Program-made: the position numbers and the translations under genes
The notes under the pieces: generated by a model
Told to the model about the DNA's origin: nothing
What the model saw: the letters and a program-made list of their open reading frames with translations, nothing else
The model's database searches: none
DNA from: a virus
Length of the DNA stretch: 64,000 bases
Virus record (IMG/VR): IMGVR_UViG_3300025438_000009
Location: 1 to 64,000 of that record
Direction: 5' to 3' (one strand)
Part shown: in pieces, positions 6,593-20,116 of the stretch
How the letters are laid out: each line of letters starts with the position of its first letter
Position numbering within the stretch: position 1 is the stretch's first letter

Positions 6593-6689
6593 ATAACAAG
6601 TATAGCAAATAAAAGAACCCCCCTTTCGGAGGGTCCTTCTTATTTAGTTGTATTACTTTTTACCGCAGACGCACTTATCTCTACACATA

Positions 6690-7688
6690 CTAAACCAAAA
6701 CTTCGGACTTAGAAGAAGCGCTAGCGTTTGCCTCATACGAGGTGTTGGTGGACTCAAAGAAGTTTACCAGGGAAAACACATCATTCACACCCATCCACTG
6801 AGCAGGGTTCGTGACGTTGTACTGAGTTGGAAGACCCAGCTCCTCGAGACGACGGTCAGCCATGTACTTGACGTACTGGTTGATGTAGTTGGCGTTCAGA
6901 CCAAGGATGCCCCTAGGGAACATGTCCTTGTTGTACTCAGTCTCCAGGTCAACAGCATCCGTAATCATCTGAGTAACTTCCTCAACAAACGCCTCAGTAG
7001 CAATCTCAGGGTTCTCCTCAAGGATTGTCAGAATGAGGTTGATACCGAACTTGAGGTGCAAGCTCTCGTCACGCACCACCCAATCAATAAGAGATGCGTA
7101 GTTCTTCAACAAGTTCCGCTGACGGAAGCTCAGTGCCACCATGAAACCCGAGTAGAAGAAGATACCCTCTTGGATGATGTTGTACGCAACAAGGTTGCGC
7201 ACGAAGTCCTGCTTGCCCTCAAGAGTATTGATATCCAGAGTCTCCTCGGTCATCCGCTTGATGTACTTAGTGATGAACTCCTCTTTCGCAGCAATCGTTG
7301 GAGACGTAATGTGCTGACCGTAAATCTTCTCGCGGTCAACAGGGAAAGTCTCCAATACATACTCGAAGCTCATAACGTGGTTGCACTCCTCAAACATCTG
7401 ACGAGCGATAAACATGTGAGCCTCAGCGGCGTTTACGTAGGGGTACACGCCAAAAGCAAGTGCCTTGTTAACAACGAGCTCCGAAGGGTTGAAGAAGGAC
7501 ATGAGAAAAGTCAGAGCGTGTTGCTCTTCATCCGTCATCTTCTTGAAGTCTGCGATGTCCTCGCCCAACTGAATTTCGTTGGGGAACCAGGTGTTAGCAA
7601 TAGCCTGGTCGTAGAGGTCCATAGCCCACTGGTATTTAACTGGCTTAAGCAAAAGCCCGTCTTGAATTCCTGTTCCAAGAATTCCCAT
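6690..7688 (-). CDS. nrdB: ribonucleotide reductase beta subunit with class Ic-type residues
   Basis: W.P.EI...DI.DF, EECNH, EGIFFYSGF, RDESLH; AGGAGA RBS before ATG 7688. Confidence 0.95.
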   Translation of the reverse strand: MGILGTGIQDGLLLKPVKYQWAMDLYDQAIANTWFPNEIQLGEDIADFKKMTDEEQHALTFLMSFFNPSELVVNKALAFGVYPYVNAAEAHMFIARQMFEECNHVMSFEYVLETFPVDREKIYGQHITSPTIAAKEEFITKYIKRMTEETLDINTLEGKQDFVRNLVAYNIIQEGIFFYSGFMVALSFRQRNLLKNYASLIDWVVRDESLHLKFGINLILTILEENPEIATEAFVEEVTQMITDAVDLETEYNKDMFPRGILGLNANYINQYVKYMADRRLEELGLPTQYNVTNPAQWMGVNDVFSLVNFFESTNTSYEANASASSKSEVLV

Positions 7689-7713
7689 TTTATTTCTCCT
7701 TATTTTTTCTTTG

Positions 7714-10131
7714 TTAGTTTTTAGCTGATGCAAAACCAAAGCCCTTTTTAGGTGCTCCAGCGGTGTCGTTTTTAGAAATTTGCTCTGCCTTGTTCACCTG
7801 TACGGTGGACTGCTCGGCGGTGTGGCGGGGCTTCATGTGCAGGTAATAGGTGGTCTTTACACCCAAGTCCCATGCAGATGTGTAGATTGCCATAATCTCA
7901 TCGATGTCCCTGGTCTCCAGGTACATGTTACGAGAAATGGCTTGGTCAACCCACTTTTGTGCCCTCGATGCAACGTGCAAGAAGGCTAGAGGGTTAAGCT
8001 GGAAACTGGTCTTGTAGACGGCTTTCAGGCTGTCAGGGACCTCGTCCAGAGTCTGGATGTTGCCTTGGTTGCGAAGAATCTCCCCGCGCAAAGACTCCCA
8101 CAATCCAAGACCCTTAAGGTCGCGGACCAGGTTTTCGTTAACCTCGAGGAACTTACCCGAGCTCGTTGCACGGCTAAAAATCTGTGCAAACTGGGGGTCG
8201 AGCCCTGGAGTAGTTCCGGCAACGAGCCCAATGGATGCTGTGGGAGCGATAGCCATCAAGGTGGCGTTACGGATTCCGTGCTCCTTCACTCGGGTGCGGA
8301 GGGTGTCCCAATCCAGAGTTGTGCTCCGACTGACCTTAATAGAGACCTCTCGGTCCTGCTCAGCCAAGTCGATGCTGTCAAAAGGAACCATGCCCTGTGA
8401 CCAGCGTGAGCCCTCGAAGTTTGGATATGCTCCTCGCTCCTTAGCAAGCTCAATGCTGGCCTCAATGGCTGCATACGAAATGTGCTCCGTAATAACGTCA
8501 GCAAGGTTGTAAGCTTCTTCAGACTCGTAGGAGATGCCGAACTTCTCGAGGATGTCAGTGAATCCCATGTAGCCCAAGCCAATTGCTCGGTTCTGCTCAT
8601 TAGAGTTGTCAGCTTCCACAACACTCGAACGGGTGACGTCGATGAGGTTATCAAGCTGACGCACAGCCAACTTTGCACTTTCGGCCAACTTTGCATAATC
8701 GATGCTTTTGTTATCTCGCGTCAGGTGCGTGCTTAAGTTAATAGACGCCAAGTTACACACCGAAACGTTCTCCAAGTCCTGCGGGAGAGTAATCTCCGTG
8801 CACAGGTTTGAACAATGAATTGTGCCTGTATTGTTGTTTAAAGCGCGGTTATTGATGGTATCTTTCCAGGTTAGCCATGGGTGGCTGGTGCCCTGAAGAG
8901 AAATCAAGATGGCCTTGAACTGCTCGCGGGCAGTGGTGACTTTATAGCGTTCGATGTTGCCAGCCTTAGCTTCCTCAACGTAGTGAGCGTAGCGCTCAGA
9001 GAACACCTTGCCATGCAGTTCGTTCAGGTCAGCAACCTCAAGCGGGTCAAACAAATACCAATCTTCATTGTTCTGAACGCGCTTCATGAACTCATCGGAA
9101 ATCCACACGGCTGTGTTTGCCGTCCGGGTGCGACGGTAGGGGTCACCGGAGTTCTGGCGAAGGTCAAGGAACTCGGGGAAGTCCAAGTGCCAGTTCTCCA
9201 TGTAGAAGCACATGGCACCAAACTTCTTGCCACCACGGCTAACAGCCCGTAGGACGCTGTCTAACGTGTGCAAAAAGGGGATAGGCCCCGTAGAGGCGGT
9301 GTTATTTGAGCGAATTGGTGAACCCTGAGCGCGAAGCTTAGTTACCGAAAGACCAATACCACCAGTTCCCTTGGTCAACCACATGACATCGCGGGTCGTC
9401 TTCGCGATGTGCTCCATGTCATCCTGCATCTCCATGACAAAGCAGTTAGCAAGCTGAGGAGTGGACGTACCAGCATTAGCAAGAGTCGAACCAGCAGCGA
9501 GATATTCAAGGGCACTCATCTTTTTGTAAAAACTAATTGCGTACTCGGTGGGGTCCTGCTCGTTCAAAGACAGGCCCATAGCGATACGCATCCAGAAGAA
9601 CTGAGGCACCTCTAAGGGGCTCTGTGTGCGGTCCTTGAGAGCGTAACGGTTCATGAAGGTGACGATGCCGATGTACTTAAAGAGCTCGTCATTGGTGGGC
9701 TCAAGGGCTTCTGAAAGTGCTTTAAAATCGAAGAGACCGTCAACAACAAACCTCTCATCCATGAGGTTCTGCTCAACCCCCAAACGAATAGTCTTCTCAA
9801 AGTTCCTTGTGTGGAGTCCCATCAACTGCTCTTTGTTGGTGTACTTTCCAAACACCCTCTTGTACAAGCTCTTAAGGAAAAAACGAGTCGCAACCTTATC
9901 AAAAGCAGGGTCATCTTTGACGTTCTGCAAAGCGACCTGAATGACCGCTTCGTCGAGCTGTTGGGTGGTGATGCCGTCAAACAAAGTCAGCTCGAGCTCA
10001 CTGGCAATCTTGGTAACCCAAGGAGTCGCTGGGTCCAAGTCATTAGTGATGTCTTCAATAGCTAAGTTAATTTTGTTCGCGTCGTACTGCTCAGAACGTC
10101 CGTCCCTCTTTGTGACATAAATGTTGCTCAT
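7714..10131 (-). CDS. nrdA: class I ribonucleotide reductase alpha subunit with ATP cone
   Basis: VTKRDG cone, LANCF, SNLCTEI, VCNLASINL, IAPTAS, KTTYY; no C-terminal Cys. Confidence 0.97.
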   Translation of the reverse strand: MSNIYVTKRDGRSEQYDANKINLAIEDITNDLDPATPWVTKIASELELTLFDGITTQQLDEAVIQVALQNVKDDPAFDKVATRFFLKSLYKRVFGKYTNKEQLMGLHTRNFEKTIRLGVEQNLMDERFVVDGLFDFKALSEALEPTNDELFKYIGIVTFMNRYALKDRTQSPLEVPQFFWMRIAMGLSLNEQDPTEYAISFYKKMSALEYLAAGSTLANAGTSTPQLANCFVMEMQDDMEHIAKTTRDVMWLTKGTGGIGLSVTKLRAQGSPIRSNNTASTGPIPFLHTLDSVLRAVSRGGKKFGAMCFYMENWHLDFPEFLDLRQNSGDPYRRTRTANTAVWISDEFMKRVQNNEDWYLFDPLEVADLNELHGKVFSERYAHYVEEAKAGNIERYKVTTAREQFKAILISLQGTSHPWLTWKDTINNRALNNNTGTIHCSNLCTEITLPQDLENVSVCNLASINLSTHLTRDNKSIDYAKLAESAKLAVRQLDNLIDVTRSSVVEADNSNEQNRAIGLGYMGFTDILEKFGISYESEEAYNLADVITEHISYAAIEASIELAKERGAYPNFEGSRWSQGMVPFDSIDLAEQDREVSIKVSRSTTLDWDTLRTRVKEHGIRNATLMAIAPTASIGLVAGTTPGLDPQFAQIFSRATSSGKFLEVNENLVRDLKGLGLWESLRGEILRNQGNIQTLDEVPDSLKAVYKTSFQLNPLAFLHVASRAQKWVDQAISRNMYLETRDIDEIMAIYTSAWDLGVKTTYYLHMKPRHTAEQSTVQVNKAEQISKNDTAGAPKKGFGFASAKN

Positions 10132-10149
10132 TGTAGTTGTTATACCTTC

Positions 10150-11097
10150 CTAATTAGTTGCTGTAAACATTCCGTTAAATACAGCAGACTTGTGTGTTTT
10201 ATTTGTAAAGTTGTAGATGTCAGAAGACCGCAGTGCGTCCTCTATGGATATTGGGGTGGTGCTTCTAATTGATGTCTTGTTCTTATATGGAAACTCAGAC
10301 CTTGTCAGGTTACGCGACAAAGTAGGAAGTCCCAAATCAATAAGAACCTCAATTGCCTTATCCCGAATTCGAAGCGAATAATGCTGAAACCTGTGGTCAA
10401 CATTAGAGACGTGACGTGAGTCTACCCCTAACGTCTGAAGAAGAAGTTTGACCTGATATAAAAAATCTACGTTATCTGAATGTAAAATCCAAATCTTGTG
10501 CGGGTCAAGCTTTCGCTTCATCAGTCCTGAATCAAAAACTCCTGCCAGCCAATCCAACTTTGTATCAACACTGTACTCAGGGTCGAGCGGTACTTCAAAA
10601 TTGGCAGGAATGTTCTCATCAAAAAATAAAGATGTCTTGGTTGTCTTCTCGTGGTCAAGAGCCAGATAAGAAAGGATTCCGTGACGGACGCCTCGTATCG
10701 TAGCTCGAGAGACTTTGAGCCTATCTCGCCAGTAACGTTCCGAACCAGAATAGAAACCGTGGGTATATGCGAAAGGAAAATCCTTATCTCCACCTTCTGC
10801 AATAGGGCAGTTAGGGATACTCGCAAGCTTCATATCTAGTGTGAGGTTTTCGGCTGTTACCTTAGTCTCGTCTCTCAGTATGAAAGTAAAGTCTTTGGAA
10901 CAGAAAAGCTCTAGGGTGTTTTCAGTTTTAATGTGGAGCAGGGGAATGTCTGATGCCATCTTAACAACGGCTGTTTCCTCGAAATCATAGCCATTCCAGA
11001 TACTTACTTTGTCTTCCTTCTCAAGAGAAGAGATAGGCTCATAACCCTTAGACGTTAATAGTAGTGTTTCTGGAGCTACACCCCAAACTTCAGACAT
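10150..11097 (-). CDS. free-standing degenerate intein-like protein (Hint plus LAGLIDADG)
   Basis: VAPETLLLTSKGY..V.IWNG, AYTHGFYSGS, WLAGVFDSG, KLLLQTLG, VFNGMFT resemble RNR (RIR1) inteins. Confidence 0.75.
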   Translation of the reverse strand: MSEVWGVAPETLLLTSKGYEPISSLEKEDKVSIWNGYDFEETAVVKMASDIPLLHIKTENTLELFCSKDFTFILRDETKVTAENLTLDMKLASIPNCPIAEGGDKDFPFAYTHGFYSGSERYWRDRLKVSRATIRGVRHGILSYLALDHEKTTKTSLFFDENIPANFEVPLDPEYSVDTKLDWLAGVFDSGLMKRKLDPHKIWILHSDNVDFLYQVKLLLQTLGVDSRHVSNVDHRFQHYSLRIRDKAIEVLIDLGLPTLSRNLTRSEFPYKNKTSIRSTTPISIEDALRSSDIYNFTNKTHKSAVFNGMFTATN

Positions 11098-11113
11098 CCC
11101 CCCGCGTCCAAAC

Positions 11114-11209
11114 TTACTGACAGGATTCGCAGTTTAAAAGGTCCATTGGGTCTACTGGGCAAACAATGCCATCAACAACGTCAACGGAGCTTTCAAAGAG
11201 GTTAGACAT
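11114..11209 (-). CDS. 31-aa peptide resembling the NrdA C-terminal redox tail
   Basis: MSNLFESSVDVVDGIVCPVDPMDLLNCESCQ; GAAAGGA RBS; heads the nrd operon. Confidence 0.8.
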   Translation of the reverse strand: MSNLFESSVDVVDGIVCPVDPMDLLNCESCQ

Positions 11210-11259
11210 GTGGTTAGTCCTTTCATGAGACAAAAATAGACCAAGAAAACTAATCCTTG

Positions 11260-11307
11260 GCCCTAGTTGTGGGGGTCGAAGAAACTCAAGTCTAGCAGAT
11301 GTGGTAT
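11260..11307 (-). promoter_or_regulatory. tandem NrdR-box-like sites overlapping a TAGACT -10
   Basis: ATACCACATCTGCTAG and CCCCCACAACTAGGGC, 32 bp apart. Confidence 0.55.
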
Positions 11308-11430
11308 TTGTTCTACAACACAGCCCTATGGACAACTAAACCCCCTTACGGGGGCCTAGTCGCCTAAGAGTAGCGAAATTACTCGGGCGGGCAGAGGAGC
11401 GAGTGGTTGCACGCGCATGCTAGCTTATTA

Positions 11431-11661
11431 CTATTCTACATCCTGTGGCTTGGTCGGTTCTAATAAGTCTCTACGGTCGTGGACATACTTTGCAGTTAGC
11501 CCAAGAGCTTGCTCATTCTTCTTATAGTGGTGGGCGCAGAAAAGCAAATAGCCCGTAGGGAAAAAGACTTGAACATAAGCTTGGAACCCACACCGGTCAC
11601 ACACATCGTGTGCAGAGAACTCAATGTGGTCCGTGGGAGTTTGAATTGTGGCAACAGGCAT
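11431..11661 (-). CDS. small actinobacterial Zn-binding protein
   Basis: CDRCG.QAYV..LLFCAHH. Confidence 0.75.
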   Translation of the reverse strand: MPVATIQTPTDHIEFSAHDVCDRCGFQAYVQVFFPTGYLLFCAHHYKKNEQALGLTAKYVHDRRDLLEPTKPQDVE

Positions 11662-11983
11662 GTTTCTATTTTACAGGTAGAATGGATGTGTGTATAGAGT
11701 ACAGAAGACCAAACACTGGTCTGCGTTTAATCCGTCTATTTCAGCCAACCCTCAAGGGGCGTCTGCTTGGTGACTTGCAAGTCTACACAGCTCTCACCAC
11801 TGGTCATGACATTATAAACAGAGTATTCTTTGCGGACGTAACTCCAGCGTTGAAGTTAAAAAACCTCCGCGAGGTGGACGTTAATGTTGTGAAAGGCATG
11901 TTGCGTCCCATCTAGATTTACAGTAGTGTTTAGGAAGTACGTTGTATTCCGGAGCTGGCCCAACGAGTAGGAAAAATTAACTA

Positions 11984-12289
11984 GTGTCAAACAAATATTC
12001 TTACGCTGGAACTGGAGCAGAATTTTGGGAGTACCCAGAATTTAAAGGTAAGGGAACCCCTGCCTGTACAAGTGAAGAAGTTGACTTATTTTTTGCAGAA
12101 ACAACAGACTCAGACTACGGGAAGAGAAACCACCAGGCAAAGAAAGTCTGTGCTGAATGCCCCTATGTTGCAGAATGCCTAGAGTGGGCACTCAAAAACA
12201 ACGAGATAGGCGTATGGGGTGGAACAACCGAACGGGACCGTAAGGCGCTTAAGCGGAAAAATTTTTCTTCATCCTCTCTATATGAGTAG
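11984..12289 (+). CDS. whiB: WhiB-family transcription factor
   Basis: AC..DLFF..AKKVCAECP...CLEWAL..GVWGGTTE. Confidence 0.95.
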   Translation: MSNKYSYAGTGAEFWEYPEFKGKGTPACTSEEVDLFFAETTDSDYGKRNHQAKKVCAECPYVAECLEWALKNNEIGVWGGTTERDRKALKRKNFSSSSLYE

Positions 12290-19786: not shown

Positions 19787-20116
19787 ATGTTGAGAGATGT
19801 AACAGATAGCACATTCGAAGACGAAGTCCTCGGGAGCAAAGGTGTTGTTCTTGTTGATATTTGGGCAGAGTGGTGTGGACCATGTAAACGGATGACCCCA
19901 GTTCTGAGTTCACTCTCCTACCAGTTCGGAGACAAGTTGCTTGTCGCCAAAGTTGATGCCGACACCAACCCAGCAACCATGGACTTGCTAAATGTAAAAG
20001 GCATTCCGACAATGATTCTCTATGTTCGCGGTGAACCAATTAAAAAATTTGTTGGTGTGCAACCTCGGCACGCTATTGAAATGGTTATCTCCGAGCATGT
20101 CATCATGAATCTCTAG
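19787..20116 (+). CDS. trxA: thioredoxin
   Basis: WAEWCGPCK, GIPT; AAAGGAG RBS. Confidence 0.95.
   Translation: MLRDVTDSTFEDEVLGSKGVVLVDIWAEWCGPCKRMTPVLSSLSYQFGDKLLVAKVDADTNPATMDLLNVKGIPTMILYVRGEPIKKFVGVQPRHAIEMVISEHVIMNL

Follow-up and report, generated by a model that had tools for sequence, protein, structure and literature searches.

Results

Organization of the ribonucleotide reductase operon

The window described here is the first 64 kb (64,000 nucleotides) of the 87-kb virus record IMGVR_UViG_3300025438_000009, and the system in question is a class I ribonucleotide reductase (RNR) operon on its minus strand, in which a 31-codon open reading frame (ORF) is followed by ORF315, nrdA, and nrdB with gaps of 16, 18, and 25 nt (Table 1). 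From sequence comparison the product of the 31-codon ORF is probably a separate micropeptide that represents the redox-active tail from the C terminus of this class I RNR. A first-pass annotation, made from the letters of the window alone, had placed a small ORF with a strong ribosome-binding site at the head of the nrdA operon. The position is confirmed by the four closely spaced genes on one strand, whereas the ribosome-binding site, a Shine-Dalgarno sequence AAAGGA located 8 nt ahead of the peptide ATG, is fair rather than strong.

NrdA gives Pfam matches to ATP-cone, Ribonuc_red_lgN, and Ribonuc_red_lgC (E 2.7e-169). When it is aligned with 30 relatives, the invariant residues of the active site and the radical path (C230, N442, C444, E446, C459, Y762, and Y763) are all kept. 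The C terminus, ..KTTYYLHMKPRHTAEQSTVQVNKAEQISKNDTAGAPKKGFGFASAKN, closes with the residues KKGFGFASAKN, and the translated ORF contains no cysteine downstream of KTTYY, as the first-pass annotation had read it. Judged by residue content the window NrdA is catalytically complete apart from the pair of cysteines at the C terminus. In the NrdA of Escherichia coli the cysteines of the tail are C754 and C759. Reviews describe recharging of the class I active site via the large subunit's C-terminal tail, which is disordered and bears two cysteines (PMC9669993, PMC4520616).

A basic-GFG(F/G) motif is located shortly before the stop codon in all of the tail-less NrdA sequences seen (KKGFGFASAKN, ARRGFGGL.., and RKAGFGFAKKQTV; positions 7714-7760 on the minus strand of the window and loci L135-L370). 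The motif is kept in relatives with a fused tail, where it opens a long low-complexity linker, and it may form a docking or hinge element.

Table 1. Coordinates of the RNR operon, its flanking features, and the phage thioredoxin in the window
Feature	Position	Strand	Evidence
Strong terminator-like hairpin, 13 pairs and a T run, closing the peptide-ORF315-nrdA-nrdB operon	6611..6640	-	Consensus scan
nrdB, RNR small subunit	6690..7688	-	PF00268 (Ribonuc_red_sm), E 6.6e-78
nrdA, large subunit of the class I RNR, 805 aa	7714..10131	-	Pfam matches, residue alignment, ends of relatives
ORF315, free-standing splicing-dead intein relic with LAGLIDADG-like core, between peptide gene and nrdA	10150..11097	-	Homology to the L044 intein
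Putative detached RNR tail peptide gene, 31 aa (MSNLFESSVDVVDGIVCPVDPMDLLNCESCQ, stop included)	11114..11209	-	ORF, homology to fused tails, family alignment
Terminator-like hairpin in the leader, 29 nt 5′ of the peptide start codon	11238..11263	-	Consensus scan alone
DUF7455 gene directly 5′ of the peptide gene	11431-11661	-	Pfam
WhiB-like ORF adjoining the DUF7455 gene	11984-12289	+	Identified by reading the sequence
Phage thioredoxin, WCGPC, candidate reductant of the peptide disulfide	19787..20116	+	PF00085, E 4.8e-27

The 31-residue peptide

The C-terminal residues of the peptide are CPVDPMDLLNCESCQ, with the arrangement C27-E-S-C30-Q31 directly followed by the stop codon. The peptide therefore carries, in its last residues, the cysteine pair (CxxC or Cx4C) of a class I α-subunit redox tail, and it lacks the tether to the catalytic chain, being a separate ORF 5′ of nrdA. 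An alignment of 65 diverse free peptides shows that only P18, D20, P21, C27, C30, and Q31 are invariant. The first of the three cysteines in the window peptide, C17, is variable in the family, where valine or isoleucine is usually found at this position, and by retaining it (CPVDP) the window peptide has the upstream cysteine characteristic of fused tails.

Searches of Pfam, NCBIfam, and PHROGs assign the peptide to no family at the thresholds applied; the weak library matches to DUF5816 (E 0.06-0.1) and to one zinc finger (E 0.57) are all taken as chance. A sequence search of the PDB gives complement receptor 1 as the sole match, again by chance. A thioredoxin fold requires more than 31 residues, and searches of Pfam, NCBIfam, and PHROG give no match to a thioredoxin, glutaredoxin, or NrdH family, so that the term mini-redoxin proposed in the first-pass annotation is a loose label for a peptide with neither the fold nor a family match. 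The expectation that a gene this short would be missed by annotation pipelines holds, because the ORF is unannotated in Pontimonas phage phiPsal1, another frame is read in Pseudanabaena phage Pan2, and the libraries contain no model for it. Prediction of a complex of NrdA and the peptide, both supplied as alignments, gave a score of 0.29 against a mark of 0.32, a value that counts neither for nor against contact between the two. Pup-like ligation through the terminal glutamine was set aside as unsupported, as a terminal glutamine is also common in fused NrdA tails.

Relation of the peptide to fused NrdA tails

The NrdA relatives compared are the best 150 representatives of 1.84 billion proteins. 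The nearest full-length relatives of the window NrdA are P0005 (58% identical), which ends in ..VCPIDPAERAQCDSCQ (longer stretch ..VKVCPIDPAERAQCDSCQ), and P0006 (54% identical), which ends in ..ACPTDPAERALCESCQ; the fragment P0124 (65% identical) ends in ..VVDGSACPIDPQERLQCESCQ (longer stretch ..ELDVVDGSACPIDPQERLQCESCQ). The window peptide, ..VDVVDGIVCPVDPMDLLNCESCQ, aligns residue for residue with these three ends. A profile was built from 86 distinct free viral peptides with the two RNR-adjacent ones excluded, and it finds four matches only among the 150 relatives, all placed at the extreme C terminus, with scores of 29.1 bits for P0124 (residues 325-346 of 346; E 3e-5 with Z = 1e6), 18.9 for P0005, 15.3 for P0104, and 14.3 for P0006. 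The similarity between the peptide and the fused tails spans 15-21 residues in the same terminal position, and the peptide is homologous to the tails that close the fused chains of the nearest NrdA relatives.

Occurrence and integrity of the tail-less C terminus

Among the best 150 representatives, 128 end in CxxC followed by 0-2 residues (CxxCQ in 92 of the 128), 14 are fragments, and eight have the KTxYY region but no terminal cysteine pair. Two of these eight, P0035 (85% identical to the window NrdA and ending KKGFGFAAAKN) and P0009 (75%), belong to the clade of the window. The other six (P0038, P0051, P0074, P0076, P0091, and P0134) come from other clades, are 33-40% identical to the window NrdA, and end soon past KTxYY; they could represent additional, independent cases of detachment, or else gene calls that were cut short.

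The split could in principle be an artifact or a product of decay, with the short ORF created by a sequencing frameshift or left as the remnant of a dying gene, and this is extremely unlikely. Contigs from four public runs, labeled salt-lake and freshwater metagenome, differ from the window over positions 7600-11400 by substitutions with zero indels (30/30 bins covered in three runs and 19/30 in one), and the tail motif occurs exactly once in the whole 87-kb phage genome, where it is equipped with a start codon and a Shine-Dalgarno sequence of its own. A frameshift artifact is thereby excluded, and no cysteine tail of the kind that the first-pass annotation had warned of is restored to NrdA. 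The tail-less end together with the peptide is repeated in three other assemblies (L124/L134, L235, and L044), and the ORF is intact in hundreds of diverged loci. Near-identical DNA is absent from the phage collection. At least half of the sampled words of window positions 6600-11700 are present in 17 public runs from salt-lake and freshwater metagenomes (2017-2018), and the runs listed for this region include no RNA run.

Co-occurrence of the peptide and tail-less NrdA in bacteria

The clade marker KTTYYLH..PRH.AEQSTV was back-translated and scanned, yielding 2 viral, at least 116 metagenome, and at least 120 species-representative-genome loci, and the 236 metagenome and genome loci among the matches listed were classified by script. 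A free tail-like ORF is present in 138 of the 149 tail-less NrdA loci and is positioned between -60 and +400 nt from the nrdA stop in 135 of them. Only one of the 83 loci with a fused tail contains such an ORF, which is 13 kb away, ends in ..CRTCA, and looks spurious; four of the 236 loci run off the contig and are unscored. This is the co-occurrence that had been predicted from the window, and the Fisher test of the association (p = 3e-49) overstates independence because the loci are phylogenetically related. The ORF pattern also admits a C-x-G-C-Q ending, by which the Saccharibacteria loci count as split.

The junctions of nrdA and the peptide ORF in 46 metagenome loci are typically stop-start overlaps of the form TGATG, TAATG, GTGA, or ATGA, with the two ORFs in the same relative frame in 42 of the 46. 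Such an overlap is the classic arrangement of translational coupling, which is accordingly the predicted mode of expression. By record titles the split state is found in Leifsonia, Clavibacter, Cryobacterium, Microbacterium, Rhodoglobus, Salinibacterium, Lacisediminihabitans, and other Microbacteriaceae, and the Saccharibacteria have a free form of 57-58 residues ending in C-x-G-C-Q/E. The fused state is found in Demequina, Nocardioides, Aeromicrobium, Jiangella, Mumia, and Nakamurella and also in loci titled Paceibacteria, Falkowbacteria, Zambryskiibacteriota, and Parcubacteria. The two forms interleave on the NrdA tree (FastTree, 158 rows), which needs at least four changes between the fused and the tail-less state. 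The catalytic chain and the cysteine-bearing piece are thus separate genes of one operon that go back to one ancestral gene, as in a split RNR.

The linkage of the ORF to nrdA bears on an alternative in which the peptide is a regulator or decoy that occupies the active-site entrance of NrdA, or thioredoxin, and so modulates or inhibits RNR or the thiol system. A comparable case is Sml1, a small protein of yeast that is in competition with the R1 tail. This alternative is improbable, since a tail-less NrdA requires some route for reductant, the coupling of the ORF to nrdA, seen in 135 of 149 tail-less loci, is what would be expected of a stoichiometric partner rather than of an inhibitor, and the cysteine pair and terminal glutamine are invariant as they are in working fused tails. 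The location of peptide genes in phages without an RNR and in late structural or lysis modules, described below, would suit an effector directed at the host as well as a helper.

Phage relatives and origin of the split

The NrdA proteins of the window, L124, and L235 nest in a clade of 70 rows, nearly all of which are split with a short peptide (SH-like support 95), and the nearest cellular rows to the window NrdA are L222 and the Microbacteriaceae metagenome-assembled genome L261 (FastTree). As the window NrdA is nested in a bacterial clade that is already split, the phage inherited an enzyme already without its tail and is not the origin of the split; the window NrdA is of the Microbacteriaceae type, with the split passed on from the bacterial lineage.

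L235 is nearly identical to the window, gene order included. L124/L134, with NrdA 90% identical, have the order DUF7455, peptide, ORF321, tail-less nrdA, and nrdB, and in L044/L125 (NrdA 63-71% identical) the peptide is 92 nt 5′ of the tail-less nrdA. Six further viral loci, L126-L131 (NrdA 37-39% identical), have fused tails, and a free peptide is absent within 4 kb. This phage lineage stands apart in having the peptide gene upstream, as the first gene of the operon.

ORF315

The ORF of 315 codons between the peptide gene and nrdA, which the first-pass annotation had passed over, is related nearly end to end to the nrdA intein of L044 (33% identity over 319 residues, E 2e-47). It retains Hint-like ends and a LAGLIDADG-like core, and its Pfam match to LAGLIDADG_3 is weak. 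The L044 intein is inserted in nrdA between the junctions ..SSNL/CVAPETL and ILTGQ/CTEITLP, and the window nrdA is uninterrupted at this site (HCSNLCTEI). Unlike inteins at the conserved active-site position of RNR, ORF315 stands outside any host protein, starts with an ATG of its own, and stops at a TAG after the terminal asparagine (TATN-TAG). The residues needed for splicing are lost, with glycine at the Cys1 position and the block-B histidine gone (CSKDF compared with TPYH in L044). ORF315 is neither an in-frame insertion nor equipped to splice, and homology to a functional-looking intein is what it shares with this class; from its own start and stop, the lost Cys1 and block-B histidine, and the intact nrdA it is therefore regarded as a splicing-dead relic. 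Yeast HO is a known case of an intein-derived free-standing endonuclease. In L124, too, an intein-relic ORF separates the peptide gene from an nrdA without interruption.

Two routes by which these genes could yield a joined product were considered and rejected. ORF315 is in frame with nrdA across the TAG codon, and this is taken as chance because a different frame is found in L124 despite its closely similar NrdA; read-through joining ORF315 to NrdA is set aside on the same grounds, and the peptide ORF is in yet another frame. Protein splicing or trans-splicing that would attach the peptide to NrdA is disfavored by the absence of splicing residues from ORF315 and of an intein from the bacterial loci.

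Neighboring genes

A GC-rich hairpin (about 11352-11334) and the terminator-like hairpin at 11263-11238 separate the DUF7455 gene from the peptide start. The position of the DUF7455 gene next to the peptide gene is kept in L124 and L044, and in L044 a WhiB-like ORF is placed on the opposite strand. The window also contains an ORF with M23-peptidase-like motifs, recognized by eye. The DUF7455, WhiB-like, and M23-peptidase-like neighbors fit an actinobacterial phage.

Peptide genes in other phages and in host chromosomes

The distribution of the peptide provides the points that weigh against its assignment as the tail of NrdA, and the first of these concern the nrd loci themselves. The peptide is upstream in the phage and coupled downstream in the bacteria, and 11 of the 149 tail-less bacterial loci among the matches listed have no free ORF, although three of the 11 have <210 nt of downstream DNA. 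In a scan of viral sequences the pattern ..P-x-DP-x-(D/E)-L-x-x-C-x-S-C-Q-stop matched at least 120 viral contigs, and among the viral loci listed an RNR gene stands beside the peptide in only two (L044 and L059). The peptide is placed between the large terminase and portal genes in about 40 of these at least 120 loci (L003-L122), and in about 37 it stands after an r1t-type holin and an M23 peptidase and ahead of a divergent cro/cI-like gene (Pfam assignments of these neighbors were made on representative proteins). An RNR α-barrel was found in none of the 13 larger peptide-bearing viral records, four of which are at least 90% complete, and in neither of the complete genomes of phages phiPsal1 and Pan2.

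The chromosomal copies add to these points. A strict form of the peptide pattern matches 45 of 101 genomes sampled from the family of Leifsonia poae (a control pattern gives 0 matches), and 39 of the 45 have two to five copies. The second chromosomal copy (..GGYAVPVDPMDLLQCDSCQ; L371, L372, and L374-L388) is strongly conserved and is of the 'DLL' type seen in the phages. It is not located beside nrd genes, and in 14 of 17 loci it lies just 5′ of dehydratase genes (FAS1-like and MaoC-like) and of murB.

Two of the viral loci have features of their own. In L059 (3843-4975 of this locus; record G001, 116,681 bp, with terminal repeats) the peptide gene is directly 5′ of an nrdB whose product is 77% identical to the window NrdB, and no nrdA was detected in G001 with Pfam profiles or by searching with proteins. 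The family member of the cyanophage Pan2 (L002, 4989-5069), ..ACPNDPADLVSCESCQ, has 26 codons and is read in another frame than the annotated 27-aa Pan2_27.

Because the same peptide family is present in many phages without an RNR α-subunit, the peptide does not have to act on the NrdA encoded by the same phage. The main variant of the proposed function is consequently a host-directed auxiliary gene, in which phages supply extra peptide to raise or control dNTP synthesis by the tail-less NrdA of Microbacteriaceae-type hosts, an enzyme that would depend on free tail peptide. The mechanism would be the same as for a tail of the phage enzyme and the main target would differ; in the window phage the peptide would serve both the host and the phage NrdA. 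A mainly host-directed role is rather unlikely, with an inhibitory decoy or an RNR-unrelated role less likely again. It agrees with the RNR-less peptide-bearing records and genomes noted above, with the pairing of the peptide and nrdB in the 116-kb record G001, and with the DPMDLLQC type of the phage peptides, a type shared with the second copy on host chromosomes. The host of phiPsal1 is given in its record as Pontimonas, a member of the Microbacteriaceae. Against it, many of the viral records are fragments, and Pan2 infects a cyanobacterium.

The second copy, located away from nrd genes and beside dehydratase-like genes and murB, suggests that the peptide may have a partner or a role beyond NrdA. 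Taken further, the same copy and the wide occurrence of the peptide in RNR-less phages would suit a function unrelated to RNR, such as metal binding or a general thiol role, with NrdA reduced directly by a redoxin or by another route. We consider so complete a separation from RNR highly improbable in view of the similarity to fused NrdA tails over 15-21 residues at the same terminal position and the almost perfect co-occurrence with tail loss. In L384 the genes for tRNA-Thr and tRNA-Met are placed about 600 nt 5′ of the second copy. A disulfide reductase beside the second copy (Pyr_redox in L371) was rejected as a candidate, as the long ORF is mostly an alternate frame, the true gene is about 1.3 kb off, and the association is unconserved elsewhere. 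A prophage origin of the second copies is likewise unsupported, with no terminase or portal relatives near four copies and a setting that is conserved and of housekeeping character.

Proposed mechanism

The peptide is homologous to fused tails, the NrdA beside it is tail-less and otherwise intact, the two co-occur nearly one to one, and the peptide is conserved and a member of the operon. With a frameshift excluded, the reading of the first-pass annotation, in which the tail would act in trans, is supported as far as sequence alone can take it. In the scheme proposed here the docking, the exchange between the thiols of the free peptide and the NrdA disulfide, and the choice of reductant are inferred. 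Turnover would leave C230 and C459 of NrdA as a disulfide, and the free peptide would then dock through its conserved (V/C)P-x-DPMD-x-L segment. The terminal C-x-S-C pair (C27/C30) would reduce the C230-C459 disulfide, after which the oxidized peptide would depart and be re-reduced by a thioredoxin, either the WCGPC protein of the phage or that of the host. The phage thioredoxin had been noted from the window before the present analysis, and its identity is upheld by the WCGPC motif and the PF00085 match (Table 1); this protein is a candidate for recharging the peptide.

A broader proposal, offered tentatively and with more doubt than confidence, is that the detached tail is a diffusible and exchangeable recharging micro-subunit of class I RNR that constitutes a phage auxiliary metabolic gene of 20-35 codons. 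RNR-less phages would express it along with their late structural or lysis genes and so enhance, or gain control of, the tail-less NrdA of the host, some phages would pair it with nrdB alone, and bacteria would keep a second, housekeeping copy. The peptide might in addition pass electrons to further enzymes besides RNR.

Implications

If the peptide acts in trans, the view of RNR turnover, stoichiometry, and thioredoxin coupling in the Microbacteriaceae, the Saccharibacteria, and their phages would be altered, and the enzyme with a synthetic 20-30-mer would provide a simple system for tail docking, which has hitherto been hard to capture. A functional part of an essential enzyme would in that case be one that escapes annotation pipelines and family libraries. 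The analysis gives a name to a conserved and unannotated phage gene that is present even in phages without an RNR. If the auxiliary-gene proposal is true, a whole class of phage-host metabolic interaction would be mediated by a peptide invisible to gene callers and family libraries.

Comparison with known systems

The peptide and the fused class I tails are alike in the terminal C-x-S/A-C-Q, which is preceded by (C/V)P-x-DP, and the peptide presumably does the same work of taking electrons from a redoxin and passing them to the disulfide of the active site. They differ in that the window peptide is untethered, with its own 31-codon gene and start, and NrdA stops after KKGFGFASAKN. The long linker from the GFG motif to the tail in fused relatives, whose tails count about 90-250 residues past KTTYY, is gone in the window NrdA.

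An experimentally examined precedent from another RNR class is the split class II enzyme described for Pseudomonas aeruginosa, where the separate NrdJb mediates cysteine thiol-disulfide exchange, is required in vivo, and forms a tight 1:1 complex with NrdJa (PMC4520616). The system is like the window operon in that the cysteine-bearing C-terminal part is a separate polypeptide of the same operon. NrdJa/NrdJb is a B12-dependent class II enzyme, whereas the window enzyme is of class I with NrdB, and NrdJb is a sizeable protein encoded downstream, whereas the phage piece has 31 aa (20-35 residues in the family) and is encoded upstream. The phage peptide family is also found far from RNR genes, unlike NrdJb as described there.

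The detached tails of the Microbacteriaceae and Saccharibacteria are of the same peptide family and accompany the same tail-less NrdA end past the basic GFG(F/G) motif. The bacterial tail ORF begins on or just past the nrdA stop, whereas that of the phage is 3.4 kb upstream at the operon head with the intein relic in between. The window peptide has the upstream cysteine and DLL, compared with D(D/E)L in the nrdA-coupled bacterial copies, and the Saccharibacteria form differs from the 31-aa window peptide in its length of 57-58 aa and its C-x-G-C-Q/E end.

No description of a detached class I RNR tail was found in the literature, of which the RNR phylogeny papers were available in part and have sequence tables that could list tail-less class I enzymes (PMC9531940, PMC9669993). 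Beside the known redox tails and split RNRs, the new elements are the upstream position of the gene, the intein relic within the operon, and a micropeptide family that extends far beyond RNR operons.

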